64,000 nt of DNA from an uncultured Acidobacteriaceae bacterium (GTDB taxonomy: Bacteria > Acidobacteriota > Terriglobia > Terriglobales > Acidobacteriaceae), in NCBI GenBank assembly GCA_963718985.1, contig CAVRAQ010000028.1, positions 5,048-69,047 on the forward strand. Direction: 5' to 3'. A program made the translations under genes and the position numbers. Shown piece after piece: positions 361-16,960 of the stretch. Within the stretch, counting starts at the first letter, position 1, and every line of letters begins with the position of its first letter. The notes beneath the pieces were generated by a model, which was not told the DNA's origin, did no database searches, and worked only from the letters and a program-made list of their open reading frames with translations.

Positions 361-3300
361 TTAGTTGCTGCTTCCAGCCGCGGCAATCGGCAAACTACCG
401 ACTTGCCCAGCCGTCGTACCTATCCCTTGCACGGTAACTTTGCCCTGCCGGAATTCATCGCCTGCTTTTTGTATGGCTCGCAACAAAGCCGGCCAATCGT
501 CGGTGTTGGTGGCAAAGATGTTCGCGACCATGCGGCGGGTCAGATTGGGGACCAGAACGTTGAGCATCGCCGGAGCATAGCCCATTTCATCGGCGAGGCG
601 CGCCCAGTAAAGATTGCTGGATTCCCAGGATTCGCCAAAGAGCCGGTCATCAAACGCCCCAGAGGCGGGGAATATCCCCATGTTGAGCAGACTGCAGGCG
701 TTGCTTTGCGCCATGGCCAGGTGGGGTATGCCAAAGTCTTTCGAGAGCCGCTCCGGGTTGGTATTGGAGGGGTCCCGGCGGGCAAGATCTTCCAGTTCCC
801 GGCCGGCATTTCCCCAGCGATGCAACTCCCCGGGAGACTTTCTACGATATTCGGCAGCCAGAAAGAAAGTGTCTGCCGGTGGCATCTGGGGAATAAACGC
901 GGTGGCGCTGTCCGGCTGCCTCAGGGCCTGTTCGGTCTCTTCCAAACGCGCCGGCGACATGTGATCGGAGAGGATCCCCAATACTTCTTCTCTGAGTTGC
1001 GGGTCCGATGCCGAAGCGATCAGGAGTTCTTCGCCGACCCGTTGATAGAGCGCCGCGGCATGCATTTCGTCCTGCCGGATGCCCCACCAGCGCGGCAGTA
1101 CCGCGCCCACCAGGAGCTCGGGGACGGTCTCTTTCCAGATCAATGCCTGGACGTTCGCCGGGGCAATAAAGTCCTGTTCCATCGAAGCCAGCGCATAAGG
1201 CAGATCGGCGAGCGATCCCAGCAAATAAGCGCCGCCGCCCGCGGTTACGCCGATTCCGACCAACTCCGGAGCATCCCAGACGTGCTCGATGCCCTGCACC
1301 GATGTGGCCGAGAAGTCGTGGGAGCGAACGAAGAGTGGGTTGTTGTGCAGAACCTGGGCGCCGGGAGGCTCATAGTAGGCGTAATTCAAGCCCACCAGCG
1401 TATCCCTGAGAAAGGGAGTCAGACGGCCGCGCGCGGCTTCCAGTTGGGCCGGAGAGCTCGGAGAATGAAGAATCTTGGTCAGGTCGGTTCGTACCTGCAA
1501 CTCCGCGTGACGGCTGGTGTAAACGATCGGAGCCCAGGCCGCCTTTTCACTTCCCGTGAAGATGGGGCGGGGCAGCTCGAATTCCCGCAGGTCTGCCGCA
1601 AGCGGAAGCAGGCTGTCGCCGATGGCCGCTCCGTGCGCCATATCCTCCAGGCCATCGAAAAGGCCGAAGAGGGAGTCGAGGGAAACCAGGCGCTGGTCAT
1701 CCATTACGGTGCGGATTCTCCGCGCCAGTTCCTGGTGCGCGCGCCGGCCGGCCGCACTGTCCTGTGCGGGGCCGGCGAGTAAATCGACGACCTGGTCCTG
1801 GGTAAGGTGCAGGCTTCCTGAGGCCGCGCCCAGGATCGACTCTAGCGAGTCGCGGGCTGCGTCAAAAAGCTGGACCGGCGATGAAACTGCGGAAAAGGGC
1901 TGAACCGCGTTTTGCCATGATCGATTCAGGCCGGGGGTTGGAATCTGCCCCTGCCGCGCGAAGATCTGCCAGAGTCCGATATCGGCCTGAAAGGCGCCCA
2001 GTGCATTTGAGCGAAGTGCGGGGTTCGAGGTCTTGTCGATTCGATCCGCCGTATCCACAAAACGAGTGATCGATGCGTCGTCCAAAGACGGAAATTCGGC
2101 GAAAACCGGGTACCAGTTGCTGAATTCCGAGAACCTTTCGGCAAGTAGCCGCACAGTCCCATCAGACAGCTTGTCTCCCTCGGGTCTTCCGCTGTCAATT
2201 GCGGTCAGCACGAGATAAATCTGCAACGGGCTGGCGCTGCCTTCAGCAGCCGAAGAGGCTACCAACGCCCCCAGCAACTGCTCCGGGGTATCCACAGCCC
2301 GGTTGCTTTTTGTCCAAGTGCGCACGCTGTTTGACTCGTACTTGCGGTTCAGGATCTCCTCCCAGACCTGCAGATTCCCTGGGACCCGAGGCTCGCCGTT
2401 GGCCTGCCATTGCAGGCGAGTCAAGAGCACCAGGAGCCCTGCGTTCCTTGGGAAGACACTTGCCGCCGCGGCGGTGTGAGAGTAATTGGCGGCTGAGCGG
2501 TAGGCCTCGTAGAGACTCTTGAGGCGAGTACCTTCAACCAGGTGGCTTTGCTGCGTTGAGCCGGCACGCGACACAGCGTCAAAATATGCCGCCAGCCAGC
2601 CTTGATCCTTCGCCAGCAGATGGGTGACGAACTCTCCCGGCGACTTCGGACTGGCTCCTACCAGTTCCCTCCAGGCTTGCTCTGCACCCGCTCCGCCGGG
2701 CACTTTCACTTCGCCGGAGCGAATGCTGATCCAGCTGCCATAGAAGTCAAGCTCAGCCGCATAGGGAAGCAGTCTGCCCAGCCCGGTTGACCGCATCAGG
2801 GCAAGCCTCGTTTGCCCATCGCTTCTGGCCAGGGCCGAATAGAGGCGGCCCACATTCCGGTCGTGCAGCAGGACATCGAGGAGATCTCTTCTATCGCTCC
2901 TCTTCAATGTGCTGAGCGAAGTCCATGCTTTTTCAGAGAACAGGACCGGGACCCGTGTAGCGGGAAACGCATAGGTAAACGGAGTGCCTCTCTGGAGGGC
3001 CTTTTCAAGCGCCGTCAGCGGGAAGCCCGAGTCGATGGTGAGGAAGGCGCGCTCCGCGTCGGCCGTCATCAGGCTGGCGCCGTCGGGTCCGCACCCCTGC
3101 TGAAACTGGTATCCAAGAATCTGAATCAGCCGGTTTACATCGCCGCAACCCCCAACCCGGATAATGCCGTCAGCACCCGCCAGGGAATGAAGCTCCCGGG
3201 CCAGTTGCACATACCGTTCGACCAGCAGCAGGAACTCAGTCGGTTTGTCCTGCGTGTAGCCCCACAGTGAAACATTGCGAGCCAGCATCGGCATCACATC

Positions 3301-3537
3301 GGAGGGGGAGATCTCCTGGCTGATGCCGGTCATGCGCAGGAAGGAGCGCAGCGGGCCCGGAATCACAACCATATCCCCCGATGAGGATGGCGGCGAAGCA
3401 TCCGCGGTAGCTTCTACGCGCGTGTTGGCGGGTGAAGAGTCCGGTTGCGGCGTTTTGCCCGCGCCTGCGGCGAAACACGCTTCCATGCACAGAAGCCCCG
3501 CTGCAAATGCAGCGAGAGAACGAAGAGGAGGGTTCAT
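361..3537 (-). CDS. Large secreted hypothetical protein (1058 aa)
   Basis: Long ORF with N-terminal signal peptide and GGAAGGGG upstream; co-directional with and abutting the VWA gene; no recognisable catalytic motif. Confidence 0.85.
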   Translation of the reverse strand: MNPPLRSLAAFAAGLLCMEACFAAGAGKTPQPDSSPANTRVEATADASPPSSSGDMVVIPGPLRSFLRMTGISQEISPSDVMPMLARNVSLWGYTQDKPTEFLLLVERYVQLARELHSLAGADGIIRVGGCGDVNRLIQILGYQFQQGCGPDGASLMTADAERAFLTIDSGFPLTALEKALQRGTPFTYAFPATRVPVLFSEKAWTSLSTLKRSDRRDLLDVLLHDRNVGRLYSALARSDGQTRLALMRSTGLGRLLPYAAELDFYGSWISIRSGEVKVPGGAGAEQAWRELVGASPKSPGEFVTHLLAKDQGWLAAYFDAVSRAGSTQQSHLVEGTRLKSLYEAYRSAANYSHTAAAASVFPRNAGLLVLLTRLQWQANGEPRVPGNLQVWEEILNRKYESNSVRTWTKSNRAVDTPEQLLGALVASSAAEGSASPLQIYLVLTAIDSGRPEGDKLSDGTVRLLAERFSEFSNWYPVFAEFPSLDDASITRFVDTADRIDKTSNPALRSNALGAFQADIGLWQIFARQGQIPTPGLNRSWQNAVQPFSAVSSPVQLFDAARDSLESILGAASGSLHLTQDQVVDLLAGPAQDSAAGRRAHQELARRIRTVMDDQRLVSLDSLFGLFDGLEDMAHGAAIGDSLLPLAADLREFELPRPIFTGSEKAAWAPIVYTSRHAELQVRTDLTKILHSPSSPAQLEAARGRLTPFLRDTLVGLNYAYYEPPGAQVLHNNPLFVRSHDFSATSVQGIEHVWDAPELVGIGVTAGGGAYLLGSLADLPYALASMEQDFIAPANVQALIWKETVPELLVGAVLPRWWGIRQDEMHAAALYQRVGEELLIASASDPQLREEVLGILSDHMSPARLEETEQALRQPDSATAFIPQMPPADTFFLAAEYRRKSPGELHRWGNAGRELEDLARRDPSNTNPERLSKDFGIPHLAMAQSNACSLLNMGIFPASGAFDDRLFGESWESSNLYWARLADEMGYAPAMLNVLVPNLTRRMVANIFATNTDDWPALLRAIQKAGDEFRQGKVTVQGIGTTAGQVGSLPIAAAGSSN

Positions 3538-4259: not shown

Positions 4260-5717
4260 CTATATCGCCGCGGCCGCGGAGTGGGAACCATGCCTTGAAG
4301 CGAGCGGAAGGGAAATTGTAATCCGGGCTCCGCCGCTCTCGCGATTCGAGGCTGCAACGGTTCCCCCATGGGCGCGCGCGACGGCATCGATAAATGCCAG
4401 ACCAAGCCCGTGCCCGTTCGAATCCCGCCCCTTCACCCTGCGCTCGAACAAATGGAGAAACACTTCGGGATCGAATCCTGGTCCGTCGTCTTCGAGGATC
4501 AACCGCGCGCTATCCTCTTCGCCCCGCAGTTCGATCGTGAGGCTACAGGCGGGCGGCAAGTGCTTCAGCTCATTGTCAAGGAGATTGGCGATCATGCGAT
4601 GGAGAAGCGCGGCATCGGCGGAGATCTCCACCGGGCCGCGGCTGCGCAGCGTTACCCGCAATCCTCTCTCCGACATGGAAGGTTCATAGAGATCGATCAT
4701 GACTCTGAGCAACTCGTTCAGATCGATGGCGCTGCGCGTAAGCCGAAGCGCATCCGCTTTGGCCTCGGCAACATCCAGCGACTTGTTGAGAAAGTCGGTG
4801 AGTCGATCCAGTTCCTCGATTGCCGAGACAATCGGTTCGGCCTGCTCGCCATCCGTGACTGTCGATAACGACATCTCGAGCTTTCCGCGAATTGCCGTCA
4901 GGGGGCTGCGCAAATCGTGAGCCAGCGAATCTGTGATGGTATGCAACTGGTGCATGGAACTCTCGATCCGGTCGAGCATGCGATTGAGAGTCAGGGCCAG
5001 GTGGCTGACCTCGTCGTTGCGTTTGGTGGTTGGCACTCTGGCGTCGAGATCGGAATGGCCAATTCTCGAAGCGGCTTCGGTAATCTCCCGGACGTGGCTC
5101 AACATGCGCCTGGTGGTGAGGAATACAATGCCGAACCCCAGCAGAACAATCAACAGCCACAACAGCAGAAAGCGCAGGCGCAGGCTCCAGAGCACCCGCC
5201 GCTCATCCCGCTCCGACAGGCCCAGAAAGATCTGGCTGCCATCCTCGATGCGGATTGAAGCCACGCGAAAGGGGACTGCGAATCCGGGGACACGCAGGTC
5301 GGTTGGCAGGTTCGGAGGGATCCTGCTGGCCTGAATTGCCTTCAGGTGGGCCTCGCCGCTGCCAGCGCCTACCCAAAGCTTGAGAGAGCCGTCCCCACCC
5401 GATTGAAGAAAGAAAACCGAATCGTTGGAATCGCTCTCTGAGGCCTGCTTGTCGGGCACCTCTCTGGCCGCCAGCTCCGCCACTTCTCCCACCACGCGGC
5501 CATAGAGGGCGTCGTTCGGTGTCCGCTCGGCCACATCGCCCAGCACCTCCACTTCGCCCGAAAGCCATGCATCGCTGCGGCGTTGAATATCGCCGGCGAC
5601 AAAATCTTGCAGAAAGACGAAGACCACCATGGTTCCGCACGCAAATGCAAGAGTTGCCCACAACGAAATGCGCCAGGCGGCGCTGCGCATGGTCGGCCTA
5701 TCGGTCTTTGAGGACAT
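4260..5717 (-). CDS. Sensor histidine kinase (2 TM, HAMP, HisKA, HATPase)
   Basis: H-box AHDLRSPL, N-box NLLDNELKH, G-boxes DDGPG and GHGLGL; overlaps the 3' end of the response regulator gene. Confidence 0.93.
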   Translation of the reverse strand: MSSKTDRPTMRSAAWRISLWATLAFACGTMVVFVFLQDFVAGDIQRRSDAWLSGEVEVLGDVAERTPNDALYGRVVGEVAELAAREVPDKQASESDSNDSVFFLQSGGDGSLKLWVGAGSGEAHLKAIQASRIPPNLPTDLRVPGFAVPFRVASIRIEDGSQIFLGLSERDERRVLWSLRLRFLLLWLLIVLLGFGIVFLTTRRMLSHVREITEAASRIGHSDLDARVPTTKRNDEVSHLALTLNRMLDRIESSMHQLHTITDSLAHDLRSPLTAIRGKLEMSLSTVTDGEQAEPIVSAIEELDRLTDFLNKSLDVAEAKADALRLTRSAIDLNELLRVMIDLYEPSMSERGLRVTLRSRGPVEISADAALLHRMIANLLDNELKHLPPACSLTIELRGEEDSARLILEDDGPGFDPEVFLHLFERRVKGRDSNGHGLGLAFIDAVARAHGGTVAASNRESGGARITISLPLASRHGSHSAAAAI

Positions 5718-6375
5718 AGCCCACACCTCGCATGGTTCGAATCAGCGGTTGCTGTCCTGCGCCGTCGACCTTGCCGCGCAGCCGGTAAATATGCACGTCG
5801 ACCACGTTGGTGTCCGGTTGAATGCGCATGCCCCACACCTTGTCCAGAATCATCGAACGCGTCACCACGCGTCCTGCATTCCTGCACAGATACTCGAGAA
5901 GGACGAATTCCTGCTGGGTCAGTTGCAGAATCTGTCCGCCGCGCGATGCCTCCCGCCGCAATAGATCCAGCTCAAGATCCAGCACCCGCAACCGCGTTGC
6001 CTCTCCGGCCGCCGGGCTGTTGCGCTTGAGCAGGTTGCGGAGGCGCGCCAGCAACTCTGCAAGCGCGAACGGCTTGGTCAGATAGTCGTCTCCGCCCTGT
6101 TCCAGCCCTCGCACGCGATCGTCGACTGATCGGCGCGCGGACAGAATCAGTACCGGAGCCCTCACGCCCAGTTGACGCAAGCGAAGAATCAAGCTGATTC
6201 CGTCCTGATCGGGCAGTCCAAGATCGACGATGAGTATGTCGAATGTGCCCTCGACCGCAAGCCGCTCGGCCGTTTTGCCGTCCGGCGCAGCTTCCACCTG
6301 GTACCCCGCTTCCTCAAGTGAACGCCGCAGGAAACTCTGAATATCGATTTCGTCTTCAACGAGCAGAAGGCGCAT
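5698..6375 (-). CDS. OmpR/PhoB-family response regulator (resembles CusR/CzcR heavy-metal subgroup)
   Basis: LLVEDE, DLGLP, GGDDYLTKPF receiver motifs; winged helix TNVVDVHIYRLRGK...IRTMRGVGY. Confidence 0.95.
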   Translation of the reverse strand: MRLLLVEDEIDIQSFLRRSLEEAGYQVEAAPDGKTAERLAVEGTFDILIVDLGLPDQDGISLILRLRQLGVRAPVLILSARRSVDDRVRGLEQGGDDYLTKPFALAELLARLRNLLKRNSPAAGEATRLRVLDLELDLLRREASRGGQILQLTQQEFVLLEYLCRNAGRVVTRSMILDKVWGMRIQPDTNVVDVHIYRLRGKVDGAGQQPLIRTMRGVGYVLKDR

Positions 6376-6818: not shown

Positions 6819-7764
6819 GTGTATTCGGCGAACGTCATGGATCAATTGGACACGAGTTTTCTTGCGCAAGCTTTCAGCACCTTTCTTTCGCTGCCGGCGG
6901 CTCTCGATCCCAACTTCGAAGATCGCGCTTCGTCATGTGCTCGACAACCCCGGAAGCCTGGTTCGCCCAAAGCTGGTTTTTCAAATGGCGACTGCGTACG
7001 GACTGGATCCTGCTCAAGCCCAGGAACTCGCCATCGCGCTCGAGTACTTCCACACCGCTTCTCTTCTGTTCGACGACCTGCCCTGCATGGACAATGCGCT
7101 GGAACGGCGCGGCGCTCCCTGCACTCATCTCGTATTCGGCGAGGAAGGCGCCATCCTTACCGCGCTTGCTTTGATCAATCGCGCTTACGCGCTCACCTGG
7201 CGCGCTGTTGCAGGCTGCCCGCGGGACCAGACAGGCCCGGGCACTCGACTTCATCGAGCATTGTCTTGGCGTGGAAGGGCTGCTCAACGGGCAAAGCTTC
7301 GACCTCCATTACTCAACTTTGCCCCGCACGCTGGAGACAACCGAACGCATTGCCCGCGGCAAGACGGTTTCGCTGATCCGGCTTACGCTGGTGTTGCCGG
7401 CCATGCTGGGCGGAGCTTCGGCCCGCGAACTCCAGCAGATCGAGCGGATCTCGGTATTCTGGGGCCTCGGTTATCAGATCGTGGATGACCTCAAGGATGT
7501 GCTTCAGAGCTCAGCGCAAACCGGAAAGACCCCGGCCCGCGACGTGGTGCTGGACCGCCCGAACATCGCGGCGGTCATCGGAATTCACGGCGCCGTTCAG
7601 CGCCTCACGCGGTTGATCGATCTCGGAGACAGAGTGCTGCGCAGCCTTCTCGCTTCACGGCCCGGAACTCGACTTCCTGGAGAGACTGCGCGGCGAACTC
7701 CAGGAGAGAGCTTGCCCGGGTTACACGGGATTCCTGCGTGCTGGCGGAGAAAGGCGGGCTGTGA
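6819..7764 (+). CDS. Polyprenyl diphosphate synthase (trans-IPPS, CrtE/IspA-like); frameshifted in this sequence
   Basis: FARM HTASLLFDDLPCMD...RRG (frame of 6733 ORF); GQSFD, KT and SARM YQIVDDLKD (frame of 7208 ORF); N-terminus in frame of 6750 ORF. Apparent shifts near 6925, 7230 and 7665-7720. Likely ends at the GTGA overlap with the next gene. Confidence 0.85.
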
Positions 7765-8876
7765 TCTTTCTCAAGTTGATTCTGACCAACCTGCGCCGCC
7801 ATCGCATCCGCTCGCTGATCAGCGTGGCCGGAATCGCCTTCAGCGTAGCGGCAATGCTGACTGTAGTCACGATTCTGCAGGGCGCCGATCGGCATGTTCT
7901 CCGGCATTCTCTCCAACGACAGCGAGATCATCGTCTTCGAGCGCGACGTCTCCGACCTTTTCTTCAGCAACGTTCCCGCGGACGCGGCTGCGCAGATTTC
8001 CAGCTTGGCCGATCGTGGCTCACGCGAACCCGGTGTTGTTCGGAATCGTCTCCAGCGCCGGTCACCCGATTATCACCTGTTTTGGGGTGACTGCCTACGG
8101 ACGCGCGCATTCAAAAGGCATCGTGGCTCGAAGGCGATCGCGGCAGTTTTGCGCAACGTGCCGATGACGTGGTGCTGGGCGCGCGCGCAGCCGAGTTTCT
8201 CTCCGCAGCTCTCGGCAGCCAGGTTCAGATCGGACATGGAACATTCCACGTCATCGGCGTGCTGAAGACGGCCAACGGCTTTGAGGATGGCGGAGTCTTC
8301 ATGCCGCTCGCTTCCGCGCAGTCCTTCTTTCACAAGCAGGGAACTTCCTCGGTGATCACGGTCAAACTGCGCAATAAAGACGATGCCGCCGCTTTCAAGA
8401 ACATGGTCAGAGCGAAGTATCCGAACCTGATCGCACTGGAAGATGCGGAGTTTACACGCTCCTATTCGCAGTTCAGGATTCTCAAGGCCACGGCCTGGGC
8501 GGTTGGTGGTTGCGGCCTGCTGCTCGGCGGACTGGGAGTGGCGAACACCATGATCATGTCGGTGTTCACGCGCATCCGCGAGATCGCGATTCTCCGCGTC
8601 AACGGATTTTCTCAAATGCAGATTGGAGGAGTGATCTTCGGCGAGTCCGCGGTTGTGTCGGTTTCCGGCGCAGTGACTGGACTGCTGGTTGGAACCTGCT
8701 TTCTGTACGCGCTCAAGCTGATTCCCGCTCTTGACGGATACGTCGACCCAACCATTCATCCGCTCCTCATGCTGGTTGTGCTGGTGCTGGCCTTGCTTAC
8801 CGGAATCGCGGGCGCCCTCTATCCGGCTGTCTACGCCATGCGGATTCGCGCGGTGGAGGCGCTTCGATTCGAATGA
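7761..8876 (+). CDS. ABC transporter permease, MacB/FtsX/LolE-like; frameshifted in this sequence
   Basis: NLRRHRIRSLISVAGIAFSVA N-terminus, periplasmic segment, C-terminal FtsX motif NTMIMSVFTRIREIAILRVNG...YPAVYAMRIRAVEALRFE; pieces in ORFs 7761, 7894, 7208(end) and 8169. Confidence 0.88.
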
Positions 8877-9577
8877 GACTCGCGTTTGAAAGCAATGGAA
8901 ACCGGCGCATCGTTTTGCGCGCGGAGAATTTATGGAAGAGCTACGACGAGGGGACAGTTGCGGTTCTCAAGGGCATGGATTGCGAGGTCTCCGCGGGCCA
9001 AACGGTGGCTCTTTGCGGACCTTCGGGCTGCGGCAAGAGCACGCTGCTGCACCTCTTCGGCGGGCTCGATATGCCCGACCGCGGGCGAGTCTCGGTCAAC
9101 GGCGTTGAAGTCAACCGGCACTCGAACCTGCTGCGCCTTCTGCGCCACGAGGTTGGCTTCGTCTTTCAACTTCACAATCTGATTCCCGACCTGACTCTCG
9201 CGGAAAACTGTCTCATCCCCACTGTTGCCGCGGGGATTGACGGCCGCACCGCAAAGGCGCGTTTGGTGGAACTCGCGGAGCGCACCGGGCTCAGCCATCG
9301 GCTCGGCCATCGCATCCAGAAACTCTCCGGCGGAGAACGCCAGCGCACGGCGCTCTGCCGCGCTCTGATGAACAGGCCGAAGATCCTGCTGGCCGATGAG
9401 CCGACCGGCTCGCTCGATGAGCAGGCCAGCAACGTGGTCTTCGATCTCTTGCTTGACCTGGTGGCCACCGAGGGCGCAACCCTGCTGATGGCCACGCACG
9501 ATCGCAGTCTTGCCGGGCGCTGCGACCGCCTTGTGGAGATGCACGATGGAAAGATCCATGAGCACGCACACGCTTGA
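8873..9577 (+). CDS. ABC transporter ATP-binding protein, LolD/MacB-like
   Basis: Walker A GPSGCGKS, LSGGERQR, ILLADEPTGSLD, ATHD; ATGA overlap with the permease gene. Confidence 0.95.
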   Translation: MRLAFESNGNRRIVLRAENLWKSYDEGTVAVLKGMDCEVSAGQTVALCGPSGCGKSTLLHLFGGLDMPDRGRVSVNGVEVNRHSNLLRLLRHEVGFVFQLHNLIPDLTLAENCLIPTVAAGIDGRTAKARLVELAERTGLSHRLGHRIQKLSGGERQRTALCRALMNRPKILLADEPTGSLDEQASNVVFDLLLDLVATEGATLLMATHDRSLAGRCDRLVEMHDGKIHEHAHA

Positions 9578-10895
9578 CCGGATGGAATCGCCGCGCCAAC
9601 ATCCGCGGGCCGTCGCCTGCGCCGCATGGCACAGCCTTTTTTGGCTTGTCTTTGCCAACTCCGTGGGCGTACTGATCGCGATTCTGCTGCTGGTTCCCGC
9701 TCTCAACCGGCAATTGGGCGAGTGGACTTACGGCCGCTGGATGATGGTGCACATGAATCTGGAGCTCTACGGCTGGGCCAGCCTTCCACTGGTGGGATTT
9801 CTCTTCAGGGTCTACGGCGCGGACCGCGGACCGGTCGCAGATTGGTGCCGGCCGGTGCTCTGGGTCTGGTCCGCCTCCCTCGGCGTCGCCGTATTCTCCT
9901 GGCTCTCCGGACATTCCAGCGGCAGGCTCTTCCTCGACTGGAGCGGATACCCACGCGTGCTGTTTCCCGGTGCGCTTCTGGCGCTTTGGCTGCTTCTGGT
10001 CTTCGCCCTGGTCGGAAGCCGGAGCAATTCGGAGCATACAAACGTGACTGCCTGGGCGGCGAAGCTGCTCGGCCTTGTGATTCTGCTCGCTGTCCCATTT
10101 CTCATTTACATCGCCTCGGGACCCGGCACCTATCCTCCGGTGAATCCCGATTCAGGTGGCCCGACATGCGCAAGCCAGTTGGAATCCTCGCTGGCCATCG
10201 TCGCTGTCCTGCTGATGCTTCCCTTCGGGATTGCACACCGCAAGCCGGCGAAAACCAGAATCGTCTCCATCGCCTGGATCGTCCTGGCCGCGGAATCTAT
10301 CCTCTGCGTCGCGCTGGGCCGCGCCGACATAAGCCATCACAGCCCGGTGCAGTTTCTCAGCCTAAGCAGCCTTCTCCTGTGGTTGCCGCTTACGCCCGCA
10401 TACTATGCGGCATTCGCCTGGCACCAAAGCACCCGCCGCTGGCAATTGGCTTTCCTCTGCTGGTGGTCAGCTCTAGTAGCCACTGGCTGGGTCTTCTTTC
10501 TTCCCGGAGTCCTCGACCACTTCAAATTCACCGACGGCCTGGTCGGTCACTCCTTCATCGCCATGGCAGGATTCACGTCGAGCCTGATCATCTTCGTCAT
10601 GGTGCAACTTCTGGGCGAGGGTGGATGGATCTTCAATCGGACGCGATCCTTTTATCTATGGAACGGCAGCGTCATCGCCTATGTCGTGCTGATGACCGTG
10701 GCCGGCTGGCGCGAGGGCTTCGACCCAACCTTCACCATCGTGCCGGGCATCGCGCGCAACGTCCTCTATGCTCTCCGCCTCGTTACCGGAATCCTGATGC
10801 TCCTTGCCTCATTCGACTGGCTCGTCGATGCGTCAACGCTGCTTCGCGAACCTGTCGCCGCTTCCATTGAAATTCCACAGGAGGAGACAGCATGA
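9558..10895 (+). CDS. Divergent CcoN-like (cbb3 heme-copper oxidase subunit I homolog) membrane protein with an incomplete His-ligand set
   Basis: About 12 TM. TYGRWMMVHMN resembles CcoN TFGRLRPLHTN; DHFKFTDGLVGHS resembles HYTDWTIGHVH; MTVAGWREG and YALRLVTG match the CcoN C-terminal helices; HH present in ISHHSP. Confidence 0.7.
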   Translation: MSTHTLDRMESPRQHPRAVACAAWHSLFWLVFANSVGVLIAILLLVPALNRQLGEWTYGRWMMVHMNLELYGWASLPLVGFLFRVYGADRGPVADWCRPVLWVWSASLGVAVFSWLSGHSSGRLFLDWSGYPRVLFPGALLALWLLLVFALVGSRSNSEHTNVTAWAAKLLGLVILLAVPFLIYIASGPGTYPPVNPDSGGPTCASQLESSLAIVAVLLMLPFGIAHRKPAKTRIVSIAWIVLAAESILCVALGRADISHHSPVQFLSLSSLLLWLPLTPAYYAAFAWHQSTRRWQLAFLCWWSALVATGWVFFLPGVLDHFKFTDGLVGHSFIAMAGFTSSLIIFVMVQLLGEGGWIFNRTRSFYLWNGSVIAYVVLMTVAGWREGFDPTFTIVPGIARNVLYALRLVTGILMLLASFDWLVDASTLLREPVAASIEIPQEETA

Positions 10896-11302
10896 ACCGT
10901 CCCATTCTCATCGGTTATCAGTTGCTGACCGGATTCTCCGATGCCTCAACCGGTGCGTTGCTCCTGCTTGCGCCGGCACTTACGCTGCGCCTGATGCATT
11001 TGCAGGCGCCTTCCGACGCGCTGATCTACAACTCGTTCATCGGCGCATTCGTTTTGTCGGTGGGTTTTGCCTGCCTCTACGGCGCCTACCTCGCATTTCA
11101 CGGCGGCTGCCGCACAAAGCTTGAAATGGTGTGGCTGCTCACAGCCCTCACCCGCGCCAGCGTCGCCATCTTTGTTGTCGGGCAAGTCCTGGTCGGCACG
11201 CTTGAAGCCGGCTGGTTGACCGTAGCGGCTGCTGACGGCGCATGTGTTCTGATTCAGGCGATTGGCTTGCGCAAGGAATGGTTGGCCCGTGCCGCGCGCT
11301 AA
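10892..11302 (+). CDS. Small 4-TM hypothetical membrane protein
   Basis: 136 aa, four hydrophobic segments, GGAGGAG RBS, ATGA overlap with the upstream gene. Confidence 0.8.
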   Translation: MNRPILIGYQLLTGFSDASTGALLLLAPALTLRLMHLQAPSDALIYNSFIGAFVLSVGFACLYGAYLAFHGGCRTKLEMVWLLTALTRASVAIFVVGQVLVGTLEAGWLTVAAADGACVLIQAIGLRKEWLARAAR

Positions 11303-13181
11303 CAGCGGCAGTTCCGGCTGGCAAGGCGCGAGCCTTGTCGCGATCGCGTATGTCTATTTCCTCATCTTCGCTCAGTTCGCATTCCTGAAGCGCCTGGCGA
11401 GCCTGGGCGTAGCCGACGCGCATCTGAATGCCATGATGGCGGCAATGGCCGGCGGCGGAATCCTCCTCAGCCTGCTGGCGCCGCGGATGAGCCTGTGGCC
11501 CTCGGCGAGCCTGCGCCTCCGCATTGCGCTCTTTGCTTCAGGCGCCGCGGCATTCCTCGCGCTTCTTCCGCTCGGCTTCGCCGCTGCCGTGGCCGTATCC
11601 TTCCTCATCGGCGCGGGTCTCGGGCTGCTCACCGTCACTCTGGCCACGCACCTGCGCCGATTCGCCGGCACTCGCAACCCGCTCCTCGCCGTCGCCGTGG
11701 GGACGGGCACAGGCTATCTTGTCTGCAATCTGCCGCGCTTCTTTACCGCCTCGGCTGAAGTGCAGGCATTTTCGGCGGGCATTCTGTGCCTGGCAGGAAT
11801 TGGGATCACTCTTCTGCCTCCGCCCTCGCCGTTTGAAGCGCGTAGCATCGGTCCTCAATCGGCGATCTCTTTTTATCGTGTGCTCGCCGGCTTCACCGCT
11901 CTTGTGTGGCTGGACTCGGCCGCCTTTTTCATCATCCAGAACACCCCGGCACTGAAGGCCGGAACCTGGCAGGGCACATTTCATCTTTGGGCAAACGGTC
12001 TGCTGCATCTTGCCGCGGCCCTCACCGGCGCATGGTTCCTGCGCCGCAGAGGTCTCTCGCCGGTTCTCACCGCCGCCTACCTCGCGCTCGCCATGGCTTG
12101 TTTGCTCCTGCTCCATCCTGACCGCGCACTGCAGGCTTCCGTCTTCTATCCCATCGGCGTCTCGCTCTACTCCGTCGCACTGGTCGCGTATCCATCCCTC
12201 CTCGCTCCCGCTGCTTCCGCCCGGGAGCGGGGCCGAATGGCAGGATGGATTTACGCGATTGCCGGCTGGACGGGCTCTGCGATGGGCATCGGCATGGGCC
12301 GGAATCTAGGCCATGTGCCCCTTGTCTTTGTCGCCGCTGCCGGCGCGGTTGTCCTGCTGCCTCAACTTATTACGGCCTTTCGCCGGCGCTCTCGTGAGCT
12401 TGCGCTCACCGCCCTCGTGATTCTCGCGGCCTTCTCTCTCCATCGGTTTCTTCACGCGTTGGATGCGGTTCCGCAACTTACTCAAGTAGAACGCGGACGC
12501 AGGGTCTACATCTCCGAGGGATGCATTCACTGCCACTCCCAATATGTGCGGCCCAATTCCCCTGACGTACTCATGTGGGGCCCGGTCGAATCCATCTCGG
12601 AGTTGCGCAGTGAACATCCGCCGCTCATTGGCAATCGCCGCCAGGGTCCCGACCTCTCTGAAGTTGGAATGCGCCGCTCGGCCCTGTGGATCAAGGCACA
12701 CTTCTACAATCCCGCCGAGGTCAGCGGCTCCTCCATTATGCCCTCCTATGAATTCCTATTCCGCGACCAGCGCGGGGACGATCTTGTCGCGTATCTCGAA
12801 AGCCTGCGCGGAACAGGCGCAGCGCAACAACTTGCGGAGGAAAGGCTCTGGCAGCCCTCAGCCGCCGCCGTCGCCCAAGCCAATGCAGTCGAAGGAGAAC
12901 GGCTCTACTTGCGCGACTGCGCCAACTGCCACAGCGCGGATGGCCCTACGCGCCGCGCCTGGCAATCGAGCTACAAGCGCCTCCCTCCGGATCTCGCCAA
13001 GGGCCCCTGGCTTTATCTGCCGTCTTCAGATTCCCTTGAGCAGCGCATGGTGCGCCTTGCGCAGATTACCAAGTTCGGCATCCCCGGAACCGACATGCCG
13101 GGACACGAATATCTGTCCGACAGTGACCTCGCCTCTATCAGTCTTTGGTTGTCGCAAGACATCGCGCAATCGAATCGATAA
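11289..13181 (+). CDS. Fusion protein: polytopic (MFS-like) membrane domain + CcoO-like cytochrome c + second cytochrome c domain
   Basis: About 400 aa hydrophobic N-terminal part; GRRVYISEGCIHCHSQYVRP...GNRRQGPDL...HFYNP...SIMPSY (CcoO/FixO signature); C-terminal LYLRDCANCH...GIPGTDMP. Confidence 0.85.
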   Translation: MPRANSGSSGWQGASLVAIAYVYFLIFAQFAFLKRLASLGVADAHLNAMMAAMAGGGILLSLLAPRMSLWPSASLRLRIALFASGAAAFLALLPLGFAAAVAVSFLIGAGLGLLTVTLATHLRRFAGTRNPLLAVAVGTGTGYLVCNLPRFFTASAEVQAFSAGILCLAGIGITLLPPPSPFEARSIGPQSAISFYRVLAGFTALVWLDSAAFFIIQNTPALKAGTWQGTFHLWANGLLHLAAALTGAWFLRRRGLSPVLTAAYLALAMACLLLLHPDRALQASVFYPIGVSLYSVALVAYPSLLAPAASARERGRMAGWIYAIAGWTGSAMGIGMGRNLGHVPLVFVAAAGAVVLLPQLITAFRRRSRELALTALVILAAFSLHRFLHALDAVPQLTQVERGRRVYISEGCIHCHSQYVRPNSPDVLMWGPVESISELRSEHPPLIGNRRQGPDLSEVGMRRSALWIKAHFYNPAEVSGSSIMPSYEFLFRDQRGDDLVAYLESLRGTGAAQQLAEERLWQPSAAAVAQANAVEGERLYLRDCANCHSADGPTRRAWQSSYKRLPPDLAKGPWLYLPSSDSLEQRMVRLAQITKFGIPGTDMPGHEYLSDSDLASISLWLSQDIAQSNR

Positions 13182-13214: not shown

Positions 13215-13793
13215 ATGAAGACGTACGCACAAGCCCTCTTCCTCGCCATCCCGCTCGCGATTGCCCCTGTCGCGCTCGCACAGCATCAGACCTTCCATGT
13301 CAATCCGGACGCCAGCCAGGTCGCCTTCGCCTTGGGCGGCAGCGGCCACCACGTGCAGGGAACATTCCATGTGCAGAGCGGATCGATCGACTTTGACCCC
13401 GGCGCACAGAAGATCTCCGGCTTCGTGGTCGTCGCGGCCGGCAGCGGCAACAGCGGCGAACCGAGCCGCGACAAGAACATGAACGCCAATGTCCTGGACA
13501 CCGATCACTTTGCCCAGGTGACCTTCGCGCCCAACAGCTATCAGGGAGCCATTGCGCCCTCGGGTGATTCCACCATCCAGGTTTCCGGCATCTTTACGTT
13601 GCACGGTACGCCTCATGACCTTACAGTTCCCATGCAAATTCATATCGATGGCGCGAATTTGACCGCCAGGGGACACTTCACGGTTCCCTACGTCAAGTGG
13701 GGTCTCAAAGATCCCAGCATCTTTGTCCTGAAAGTGGCCAAGGACGTTGATATCGACCTGACTCTGAGCGGTCAGCTAACCCGCGGGAACTAG
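13215..13793 (+). CDS. yceI: YceI-family periplasmic lipid/polyisoprenoid-binding protein
   Basis: Signal peptide; VxGxF, SGNSGEPSRD, FTLHGTPH and DVDIDLTL beta-barrel motifs; AGGAG RBS. Confidence 0.88.
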   Translation: MKTYAQALFLAIPLAIAPVALAQHQTFHVNPDASQVAFALGGSGHHVQGTFHVQSGSIDFDPGAQKISGFVVVAAGSGNSGEPSRDKNMNANVLDTDHFAQVTFAPNSYQGAIAPSGDSTIQVSGIFTLHGTPHDLTVPMQIHIDGANLTARGHFTVPYVKWGLKDPSIFVLKVAKDVDIDLTLSGQLTRGN

Positions 13794-13951: not shown

Positions 13952-16900
13952 TCAGAACGAGAATGCAGCCTGGATGAAGATGCGCCGTGCTGCCGAACCG
14001 GACGAGAACATTCCGTAGGCCAGGCTGGTCGATTGGCCAAAATTCGGCGAGTTCACGGTTCCGATCGGTTGTCCACGATCAATGTCGTTGAACAGGTTCA
14101 ACGCCTGGGCGCTGAAGCTGAGCGAGTATTTGTGGCCGGTGCTGGCGCTGCCGCCCATCATTCCCCGGCCGCCTCCACCAAATCCACCGCCAAATCCGCC
14201 GCCTCCGAAGCCTCCGCGCCCGCCGCCGCCGCCACCGCCCGGGGGTGGACCACCGCCAGGGCCGCCGGGGCCACCGCCGCTATTCGAGCCGCTCGCCGAC
14301 TCAAGTTTGGGTCCCAGCCCGAAGGCGCGGCTGACGCGCAGATTCATGGCCACGGCAGCCGGCCCGTGGCCCATGTTTCCCGGAATGATCGTCTCTCCAG
14401 GCTGGGGAATGGTATCGAAGCAGCCAAAAGCAGTCTGCACGTACTGCGTTGAAGATGCTGTGCAATCGGAGGCATTAACGATCGATGGACGGTCGTTGAA
14501 GAAGTTGTCACCAGTCAAATCGTTGGGAGAAACAAAATTGTAGGGACGGCCCGATTGCGCAATGAGAAAAGGGTTGAATGTGATGCCCAGCGGGCCGGCG
14601 TAATTGCCCATCAGAAAGACCATGTTGCGCGAGGCAAAGCCGGCCGGGCGGTAGTCCTGCATCAGGTTGTAGGAGTTTGATGCCGTACCCGTGTCGGAGT
14701 TGGCCCAGGTCAGGTTGTAGAAACCTGACAGCCCCAGGTTGGGCGTCAGGCGTGCGTTGATATTCGCGATGAACTGGGTCTGCTTGAAGACTGCCTGGGA
14801 GTCGTACTGCTCCACGATGCCCAGCGAGGGATTGGGCCGCACTCCGGTCAATGTGGAACTGCCATACAGGAAAGTCCCGGGCAGATAGGCATTCGAGTCG
14901 CGCGTGACCATCTGATGAACGCCATAGCTGCGCAGATAGGTAAAGGAGAGCGACGTTGTTTTAGTCAACTGGCGCTCCAGGCTCGTTGAAAACTGCTCGG
15001 TATAGGGGGAGTGATAGGTGGGCGTGACCTGGATGATCGTCTTCGCATTGGCGCTGGCCGGTCCGCACGTAGACAGGTTGATTGCGCTCAGACTCGTGGC
15101 GCTGAAGCATGTGGGATTTGTGATCGTGTTCTGCGTCTGGCTGTCGGCGCCGCCGCTGTAGCGCGCTATGTTCAGCAGGTTGCCCAGTCCGAAGCGATCG
15201 TAGAAGAAACCATACCCGCCGCGCAGCACGGTCTTGGCTTGTGCGCGGTTCTTGTGGCCATCGAGCGCATAGGCGAAGGCAACCCGCGGACCCCAGTCGT
15301 CGTGATCCGCAACGTGATTCTGTGACTCCCAGCGCAGGCCCCCCGATAGAGTCAGGTTTGCGTTGGCCTTCCAGTCGTCCTGCACAAACAGCGCGCCGTC
15401 GAACACGCTTCTCACCACGGCCGCGGCGCCGGTAGTGTAGTTGAGCTTGTTGGGCAGGCCGCCGGCTGCGGCAATTTGTGAAAACGTCTCGCCCGCGGCA
15501 AGGCCGTTCATCATGATGACGTACGCATTCAGCGAGGGAAAGCTGAAGCTGCCGTTGAAATTGGCGCTTGACGAGTTGGCGTCGCGATTGTAGCGCAGGC
15601 GCGTTCCGAACTTGATGGCATGTGCGCCTGCCGACATGGTAGTCAGGTTCTGCAACTCAAGGTGATCCGTGTGATCGTTGGAGCGTTGGCCGGAAGATCC
15701 GCCGCTCGTAAAGGATCCCGGTACCGAGATGGTTGGCGTGGTGCTCGCGGGTGTTGAGGAGCTGAGGTCGCGAAGATACTGGAACCTCGTTTCGTTCACC
15801 ATGTGTTCGTTGATGGTCTGCGAATCGCTAAGTTGAAGGGTGTGCTCGACAAAGTCTGAAGTCGTGGACTGCGATGGCAGTTGCAGTGACCCGATCCCCC
15901 CGCTCTGGTTGTAACGCTCATATTGGTAGCGCAGCGTGAGCGTGTTCTTCTGCCCCAGTTGGATATCGACGCGCGGCGAAACTTCGGTATGAGTTGAGGG
16001 GTTGAAGAGTCCGCCCGATACGGTTCCCGCGCCGTAGGTATTGGTTGCCGGATTCAAAACCGCCGTGGTCACTGTGTAGATGCTCGCGTTCTGGTTGTCG
16101 CGCTCATCCACGCTGATAAAATACGAAGCGGATTTTGAGATGGAACCGCTGATTGAGCCGTTGTACTGGATGCTGTGGTACGCGGGAATGGCAGTAGTGA
16201 ACGGGTTGCCGGTGTTGAAGGCGTCGTCGTTGCCCTGGGCAAAGAATCTCCCATGCAGTTGGTCGGTTCCGGGTTTGGTCAGAATCTCGATGCGCCCGTA
16301 GCCCAGGTGGTCGAACTCGGCCGAGAAGGGGTTCTGGTTGATGCGAATCTCGCGAATCGCCGACTTGGGGGGAAGTTGCCCGCCAGTGAATCCTGAGATG
16401 TAAACTTCTCCGCCGTTGGGTCCCGCCGCGGGACCGGCCAGAGCCGTCAGTTCGTTTGACAGTTCGTCGGGATCGTCTGAAAGTGCATCCAGGTCCTTGT
16501 CCTTGAGGACCACGGAGCTGGTGTTGCCGCTGGCCTCTACACTCACCATGGGCGCTTCCTCGTCGGAGACCGTCACACTCTGCTGCGCCACCACCATGGC
16601 CAGGGAGATGTCGACGTGCTTCACCTGCCCGGCCGCAACCTGGATGGCAGGCGAAGAAGCTGGAGCGAAGCCCGCGAACACCGCCGTTATGACGTAGCCG
16701 CCGGGCGCCAGCCCGTTCACTGCATACGCGCCCGTGGAGTCGGAGGTAGTAGTAGTCACGGCCGCTCCCGCCGTAGTGGTCACAGTAATCTTCGCCCCGG
16801 GAATCAACGCGCCCGTGGGGTCGGCAATGTGCCCGCGCACAGAAGCTGGCGCTGCGGCCGCCGTTCGTGCGGGAGCCTGAGCGTGCGCAGCGGCCACACT

Positions 16901-16960
16901 AGCCAGGCCCAGCGCCAAAGCAACCAGAAAGCGAATAAAGCAATGCAATTTTAAGTACAC
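13952..16960 (-). CDS. Oar-type TonB-dependent receptor with carboxypeptidase-regulatory-like N-terminal domain
   Basis: Signal peptide, GxxxDPTGAxIPGAxxT domain, NPFSAEFD plug region, FVQDDWK and LSGGLRWE barrel motifs, C-terminal Phe. Confidence 0.9.
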   Translation of the reverse strand: MYLKLHCFIRFLVALALGLASVAAAHAQAPARTAAAAPASVRGHIADPTGALIPGAKITVTTTAGAAVTTTTSDSTGAYAVNGLAPGGYVITAVFAGFAPASSPAIQVAAGQVKHVDISLAMVVAQQSVTVSDEEAPMVSVEASGNTSSVVLKDKDLDALSDDPDELSNELTALAGPAAGPNGGEVYISGFTGGQLPPKSAIREIRINQNPFSAEFDHLGYGRIEILTKPGTDQLHGRFFAQGNDDAFNTGNPFTTAIPAYHSIQYNGSISGSISKSASYFISVDERDNQNASIYTVTTAVLNPATNTYGAGTVSGGLFNPSTHTEVSPRVDIQLGQKNTLTLRYQYERYNQSGGIGSLQLPSQSTTSDFVEHTLQLSDSQTINEHMVNETRFQYLRDLSSSTPASTTPTISVPGSFTSGGSSGQRSNDHTDHLELQNLTTMSAGAHAIKFGTRLRYNRDANSSSANFNGSFSFPSLNAYVIMMNGLAAGETFSQIAAAGGLPNKLNYTTGAAAVVRSVFDGALFVQDDWKANANLTLSGGLRWESQNHVADHDDWGPRVAFAYALDGHKNRAQAKTVLRGGYGFFYDRFGLGNLLNIARYSGGADSQTQNTITNPTCFSATSLSAINLSTCGPASANAKTIIQVTPTYHSPYTEQFSTSLERQLTKTTSLSFTYLRSYGVHQMVTRDSNAYLPGTFLYGSSTLTGVRPNPSLGIVEQYDSQAVFKQTQFIANINARLTPNLGLSGFYNLTWANSDTGTASNSYNLMQDYRPAGFASRNMVFLMGNYAGPLGITFNPFLIAQSGRPYNFVSPNDLTGDNFFNDRPSIVNASDCTASSTQYVQTAFGCFDTIPQPGETIIPGNMGHGPAAVAMNLRVSRAFGLGPKLESASGSNSGGGPGGPGGGPPPGGGGGGGRGGFGGGGFGGGFGGGGRGMMGGSASTGHKYSLSFSAQALNLFNDIDRGQPIGTVNSPNFGQSTSLAYGMFSSGSAARRIFIQAAFSF

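Follow-up and report, generated by a model that had tools for sequence, protein, structure and literature searches.

We analysed a 64,000-nucleotide stretch (the window) of contig CAVRAQ010000028.1 from an uncultured Acidobacteriaceae bacterium (GenBank assembly GCA_963718985.1), in which one gene (11289..13181, + strand) joins a major facilitator superfamily (MFS) transporter domain to a CcoO-type cytochrome subunit and a second cytochrome c. The gene is part of a real and conserved complex of soil bacteria, descended from the O2-respiring cbb3 enzyme, which has lost the copper site, travels with genes for isoprenoid lipids and does not qualify as an oxidase. We tentatively propose, giving this slightly less than an even chance, that the fusion serves as transporter and electron wire in one subunit of an envelope system which is not respiratory and which handles an isoprenoid lipid, most likely of the quinone type.

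The fusion comprises 630 amino acids in one uninterrupted frame, as the first-pass annotation had described, and its GTG start overlaps the gene upstream. Pfam finds FixO at residues 378–495 (E 1.9e-29) and Cytochrom_C at 534–622, and the first 377 residues have no match. In an AlphaFold model built from 103 homologues (mean predicted local distance difference test, pLDDT, 91.5), 12 helices are located in residues 11–362 and a 13th at approximately 366–391; the earlier estimate of about 12 helices ahead of the CcoO domain is therefore one short, but the first 12 do make an MFS fold. Residues 1–360 superpose on MFS transporters (Z 29.2, root mean square deviation 3.2, 333 residues aligned; Foldseek probability 1.0), which bears out the transporter fold expected of the N-terminal part, and the segment that had been quoted as MFS-like (ERGRMAGW...) is transmembrane helix (TM) 11. 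The 12-helix domain spans residues 8–362 (11310..12374, +). The 13th helix (12384..12461, +), which is preceded by the basic cytoplasmic linker RRRSRE, is the CcoO membrane anchor. It is followed by the CcoO/FixO monohaem domain (12471..12818, +), with CxxCH at residues 412–416 (nt 12522–12536) and Met484, and by a second class I, CcoP-like haem c domain (12864..13172, +), with CxxCH at residues 544–548 (nt 12918–12932) and Met603, which some homologues lack. Both haem motifs stand where they had first been noticed, as CIHCH and CANCH. The CcoO residues C412, C415, H416 and M484 are found in 85/85 fused homologues, as is the second CxxCH; Met603 is found in 84. Lys and Arg counts alternate along the protein in a positive-inside pattern with the N-terminus in the cytoplasm; helix 13 is thus an ordinary anchor of CcoO type, and the two haem c domains are periplasmic.

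Compared with CcoO/FixO (PF02433; 3mk7_B, 8smr_F) and CcoP, the protein shares the monohaem domain with its CxxCH and axial Met, the anchor helix, the second class I haem c domain and a predicted docking on a partner of CcoN fold. It differs in the 355-residue MFS domain ahead of these, in its partner, which has no O2-reducing site, and in its scores against the cbb3 subunit II equivalogs (88 bits against a cut-off of 200.65 for TIGR00781 and 97 against 218 for NF011055).

The MFS domain of the window protein is missed by Pfam, NCBIfam and single-sequence PDB searches, and MFS_1 is matched by 15/34 homologous N-terminal domains. For the CcoN-like protein of the window the same searches give nothing or a weak N-terminal match. 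Since these searches are largely blind to both proteins, profiles and folds were needed to recognise them. The Motif A-type signature of MFS transporters is found in loop 2–3 of none of the 103 homologues; in loop 8–9 the form G-x3-D-R/K is found in 52/103, and the window protein lacks it. Looking at single residues, Y143, N147, F152, D209, F213, W227, H240, Y287, Y294, S295, W327 and S330 are invariant. Most of them lie in the periplasmic half of their helix, and nearly all are retained in copies which consist of the MFS domain only.

The fusion recurs in finished genomes and is free of stop codons in 80/80 GTDB loci, including that of the complete Terriglobus roseus DSM 18391 (NC_018014.1); homologues are thus not always two genes, and the best 120 database homologues span 97–100 % of the protein. 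Its distribution is patchy: it is found in 11 of 301 genomes of the family and 6 of 401 of the phylum sample, one of the latter being a broken fragment. A further 26 of 401 genomes contain it in the phylum of genome G677, which we infer from the named homologues to be Verrucomicrobiota. In genome G349 (L175:6806-6952) a short MFS gene remnant which contains stop codons, with no other operon gene near, is a decayed copy.

The partner protein (9558..10895, +; 445 amino acids) has the 12-helix fold of the haem-copper oxidases, with Z 26.4 to CcoN (3mk7_A) and equally 26.4 to NorB (4xyd_A) of the cytochrome c-dependent nitric oxide reductase (cNOR), at approximately 15 % identity. Mapped on Pseudomonas stutzeri CcoN, it keeps H65 (CcoN H60) and H331 (H345), and these two positions are invariant in 190/190 non-redundant homologues. 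A205, G254, R255, F333 and I248 are found at the positions of CcoN H207, H257, H258, H347 and Y251, and helix VII of the window protein contains no Tyr. Across the 190 homologues, H347 is His in 139 and Leu, Phe or Ile in 51 (it is kept outside the Acidobacteriaceae and is Leu or Phe in this clade), the three distal (CuB) His occur together in six, and the site of the cross-link Tyr is aligned with aliphatic or small residues, with no Tyr among the common ones. Met336 is a possible substitute ligand for H347. Oxygen reductases require the CuB triad and the Tyr (PMC11214002). Judged by its residues, the partner, without the three CuB His, the cross-link Tyr and one haem b ligand, is no cbb3 catalytic subunit.

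In the complex prediction the fusion and the CcoN-like protein score 0.88, against 0.00 for the best control; of the solved pairs 58/80 attain the mark applied, and of the mismatched pairs 2/110. Runs share at least 85 % of contacts, with a partner pLDDT of at least 83, and the predicted contacts lie in fusion residues 369–489, which are helix 13 and the CcoO domain, so that the predicted docking on the CcoN-like protein resembles that of cbb3. Because CcoN–CcoO is a solved pair, and the prediction may echo memory of solved cbb3, the score indicates likeness and not binding. Between the MFS domain and the CcoN-like protein the predicted complex names no contact with confidence, which is not evidence against contact. 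Concerning the oxidases proper, Occallatibacter (L171:2100-7737) has an intact C-type haem-copper oxidase with all six His, in an operon which also contains a Rieske protein, cytochrome b and a 597-aa multihaem FixO-repeat cytochrome. Since it coexists there with the operon of the fusion, the latter is no stand-in for a C-type oxidase.

Seven genes, closely spaced and for the most part overlapping, are lined up here with the fusion in sixth place, and a divergent two-component system lies alongside. The order is a short-chain trans-polyprenyl diphosphate synthase of the farnesyl/geranylgeranyl diphosphate (FPP/GGPP) synthase type (6819..7764, +), a MacB/LolE-type ATP-binding cassette (ABC) permease (7761..8876, +; 370 aa in homologues), a LolD/MacB-type ABC ATPase (8873..9577, +), the CcoN-like protein, a 136-aa four-helix (4-TM) membrane protein (10892..11302, +), the fusion and a periplasmic polyisoprenoid-binding lipocalin of the YceI family (13215..13793, +). 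This order is retained in nearly all 80 loci and also in distant lineages, where YceI and the regulators are relocated. YceI is found in 79 of the 80 GTDB loci, the 4-TM protein in 80, the CcoN-like protein in 77, the ABC genes in 74–75 and the synthase in 71, many of the gaps falling on short contigs. The notions that the synthase or the ABC transporter is always present were rejected, since there are loci which lack either gene.

Several of these genes point to an isoprenoid. The operon synthase is additional to two housekeeping copies. A type-1 isopentenyl diphosphate (IPP) isomerase scores above its cut-off within the operon in L177 and next to it in L187, L190 and L201; MenA lies beside YceI in L081, and MqnP-like prenyltransferases are found in or beside the operon in L091, L108 and L176. 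An HpnN/MMPL-like exporter is present in 5/7 loci which hold the MFS gene and lack the ABC genes, and was not found in the ABC-bearing loci fetched. Octaprenyl diphosphate and menaquinone are known ligands of YceI proteins (PMC5350466). Because of the extra synthase, the isomerase, the MenA/MqnP enzymes, the exchange of the exporter and the binding by YceI, an isoprenoid and probably quinone-type lipid is favoured, and the earlier guess of a flippase fits this gene context best.

We hold a little more loosely the wider proposal that a haem-copper oxidase scaffold has left respiration and become the redox station of a pathway making, flipping, redox-converting and exporting an isoprenoid quinone-like lipid, the subunit at which electrons enter being fused to the transporter. 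In the isoprenoid reading as first given, the synthase would produce a short prenyl diphosphate, to be joined to an aromatic head by an enzyme of the UbiA family, whose gene is in the locus in a few lineages and elsewhere in the genome here. The MFS domain, with a conserved aromatic/Asp/His pocket in its outer half, would move the lipid or its precursor over the inner membrane; the haem chain (cytochrome c, the CcoO haem and a b-type haem on H331) would oxidise or reduce it via the periplasmic cytochrome c pool. The ABC transporter, or a resistance-nodulation-division (RND) exporter of the HpnN type, would then extract the lipid and YceI would carry it, the two-component system inducing the operon under stress.

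Several points weigh against the isoprenoid reading. The case for the putative substrate is one of gene context. The operon of the window has no head-group or prenyltransferase gene, and no orthologue of the synthase was found in the single-contig genomes G1064 and G845, which keep the Cco, MFS, ABC and YceI genes. The synthase retains both Asp-rich motifs (DDLPCMD and DDLKD); however, in nearly all operon copies PGSLVRP (window 6950–6970) replaces the IPP-binding motif GGKRxRP which the housekeeping copies carry, and without its Lys the product may be unusual. Loci were collected via the MFS domain, which inflates its apparent centrality. Finally, the invariant D209 and H240 and the conserved C146, M50, M53 and M336 could bind a metal instead.

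The first alternative, which we consider unlikely, is a remodelled detoxifying or gas-reacting haem enzyme (a reductase of NO, peroxide or lipid hydroperoxide) whose distal site has been rebuilt and for which the MFS domain imports a metal such as Fe, the isoprenoid and YceI genes being a co-regulated antioxidant module. The fold is as near to cNOR as to CcoN and H345 is invariant, as given above, and NOR-like families without the Tyr or one His are known (PMC11214002). The acidobacterial copies contain Q207, E209, E246 and H260, which makes a rebuilt distal site possible; H205 and H260 are nearly mutually exclusive, exactly one being found in 174/190 homologues. E209 coincides in position with Glu211, an FeB ligand of NorB. 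The FeB site of cNOR and qNOR, three His and a Glu, is however not found, since the His triad is absent where E209 occupies the Glu position in Acidobacteria. Also, the window protein holds none of the three distal His, distal residues vary widely among clades, and the exchange of ABC for HpnN and the retention of the MFS gene without cco genes are left unexplained. Co-evolution of H205 and H260 was rejected, since the H205 state changes once on the FastTree tree and the swap is a single event.

Handling of haem or prenyl-haem is a more doubtful explanation: the MFS domain and an HrtAB-like ABC transporter would move haem, the synthase would supply its prenyl tail and the CcoN-like protein, which keeps only haem ligands, would act as haem scaffold or modifier. 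The invariant TM8 His lies in aromatic surroundings, and the 370-aa MacB-type permease with its adjoining two-component system resembles HrtAB/HssRS. Against this, the neighbouring UbiA enzymes score as MenA/MqnP-type, haem O synthase models scoring far lower; no CtaB or CtaA gene was seen beside the operon in the annotated loci, and the replacement by an HpnN-like exporter suggests a neutral lipid.

The arrangement of the domains bears on whether the two modules need each other. Among the 114 representatives which span the MFS domain, two haem motifs are carried by 68 and a single one by 11, which makes the fused form the commonest (79/114); the other 35 lack such motifs, and fragments may be included among them. 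True splits with adjacent genes are found in L081, L085 and L177, and in G983 and G1013 an anchored CcoO–cytochrome gene directly follows the CcoN-like one, with the MFS gene 315–340 kb away. All 21 sampled genomes with a CcoN-like gene also have the MFS gene; a CcoN-like gene was not found in five MFS-bearing genomes (G911, G962, G821, G980 and G998), some of which are incomplete. In L176, L178, G911 and G962 the MFS gene is accompanied by ABC and YceI genes and the cco genes are absent from the locus. These distributions suggest that the haem complex depends on the transporter, whereas the transporter does without the haem complex. The proposal that electron delivery is physically coupled to the transporter is weakened: about a third of distant homologues are MFS-only, the parts may lie far apart, the MFS gene occurs where no CcoN-like gene was found, and the predicted interface involves only the anchor and the CcoO domain; fusion keeps transporter and redox module together and is mechanistically optional. 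It is very unlikely that the haem complex is a sensor of O2, NO or redox state which gates the attached transporter: the predominance of the fused form and the degenerate catalytic site would suit it, but the MFS domain occurs unfused, far away or where no CcoN-like gene was found. Larger joins also exist, namely a 691-aa fusion of the 4-TM protein, MFS and CcoO (L173:9124-11199), a 1016-aa fusion of MFS–CcoO–cytochrome with a metallo-beta-lactamase-fold hydrolase (P0353) and a 1130-aa CcoN-like-to-cytochrome join, whose 4-TM part is seemingly frameshifted (P0300).

The first-pass annotation had suggested a link to copper, that is, a functional cbb3 oxidase whose subunit II carries a CcoA-like importer. 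This is largely refuted and, in our estimate, highly improbable. CcoA/CalT shares with the protein the MFS fold, the genetic link to cbb3-like genes and an invariant His in TM8, the same helix as CcoA His261, and the nearest regulator models are CusRS-like. CcoA is defined by MxxxM in TM7 and HxxxM in TM8 (PMC8406296), but these are found in 1/103 and 0/103 homologues, respectively; the MFS domain has at these sites the invariant D209 and HxxxA (H240, A244). It is also fused to cytochromes, and the copper client is absent, as the partner has neither the CuB His triad nor the Tyr, and hence no CuB site to fill. Also, the regulator scores are under cut-off, the contiguous operon has no room for a ccoQ, ccoP, ccoG, ccoH, ccoI or ccoS gene, and the operon genes fall, rather than rise, at low O2. 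D209/H240 may form a metal site, but the partner has no CuB to supply. Concerning the regulators, the divergent OmpR-type response regulator (5698..6375, −) is nearest to CusR/CopR-like models, and its partner sensor kinase lies at 4260..5726 (−). A copper-sensing kinase is unsupported, and the periplasmic domain of this kinase has no conserved His/Met/Cys cluster.

That the assembly fused two separate genes is refuted by the stop-free frame in 80/80 loci and in finished genomes, even if split forms exist and seven indels lie 3–4 kb upstream. The latter made sequence quality a reasonable concern: relative to three close homologues, single-base +1 insertions are found at 6924, 7226, 7664, 7705, 7885, 8004 and 8092. 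Four of these interrupt the frame of the synthase, which is intact in homologues, and three that of the permease; the genome's COX1 gene on C9 is likewise in two frames. As the insertions are clustered and all +1, and COX1 is also affected, they are probably long-read errors.

The operon bears on published descriptions of these bacteria. In the T. roseus genome the fusion is the sole FixO match, and COX1 is matched only by two genes, both A-type; G465, which we take to be Acidobacterium capsulatum ATCC 51196, gives the same picture. A cbb3 oxidase has been listed in T. roseus KBS 63 (Terro_4248-4250: ccoN, an unknown gene and ccoO) and in A. capsulatum (ACP_0885/0887/0888) (PMC5900883, PMC8407424), and the strains have been labelled microaerobes on account of ‘high-affinity cbb3 oxidases’ (PMC5900883). 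The ‘cbb3 oxidases’ of the two species in PMC8407424 are this operon and, going by the residues of the partner, are probably incapable of normal O2 reduction. The listed genes are expressed at 0–14 transcripts per million (T. roseus 0–12, at all O2 levels) and fall at low O2, which the authors left unexplained (PMC8407424); an inability to reduce O2 normally would explain this silence at nanomolar O2. The published cbb3 reading is thereby corrected; through database labels the error also reaches genomes from soil and peat. If the isoprenoid reading is true, a haem-copper oxidase family would have a role beyond the respiration of O2 and NO, and a family of MFS transporters would have a new class of cargo. 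Since cultured strains carry the operon, the fusion is directly testable.

Neither the fusion nor the operon was described in the papers that we searched. A published precedent for a haem-copper oxidase-like protein without CuB ligands is OccS of ‘Ca. Dechloromonas occultata’ (bioRxiv 10.1101/695007), compared here by its description; it differs in that its operon is an extracellular multihaem one, for which neither MFS nor isoprenoid genes have been reported. The logic of extractor and carrier is that of LolCDE/MacB, HpnN/MMPL and YceI, the ABC and HpnN-like genes being mutually exclusive here, and in the literature on these systems we found none coupled to a complex derived from haem-copper oxidases.

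The 136-aa protein has zero matches in Pfam, PDB and Atlas, which leaves a DoxX-like identity unsupported; its invariant residues are D17, R88, W108, D115 and Q122. It is joined to the MFS domain in L173, and some loci have no 136-aa protein. Promoter and terminator scans of the operon gave results at chance level. A metallo-beta-lactamase-fold hydrolase (PRK00685-like), a possible lipid-phosphate processing step, often adjoins the operon (L083, L084, L085, L091, L105, L177 and 17 further loci) and is absent from the window. A 160-aa exported protein with no match in Pfam or NCBIfam recurs by the operon in distant lineages (L085:3368-3859 on the − strand, L093, L098, L177 and L187). In the window, a 1002-aa TonB-dependent-like outer-membrane barrel (13952–16960, −) is convergent with yceI and probably unrelated to the operon, as relatives lie near only 6/80 loci, and a 1058-aa exported protein of unassigned family (361–3537, −) is located downstream of the sensor kinase. 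In L096:1453-9001, L113:1301-9013, L183, L195 and L203, from one group of genomes which is probably Opitutaceae, a histidine biosynthesis operon on the opposite strand separates the MFS gene from the genes upstream and so splits the cluster, and in these loci the cco genes have often been moved or lost.

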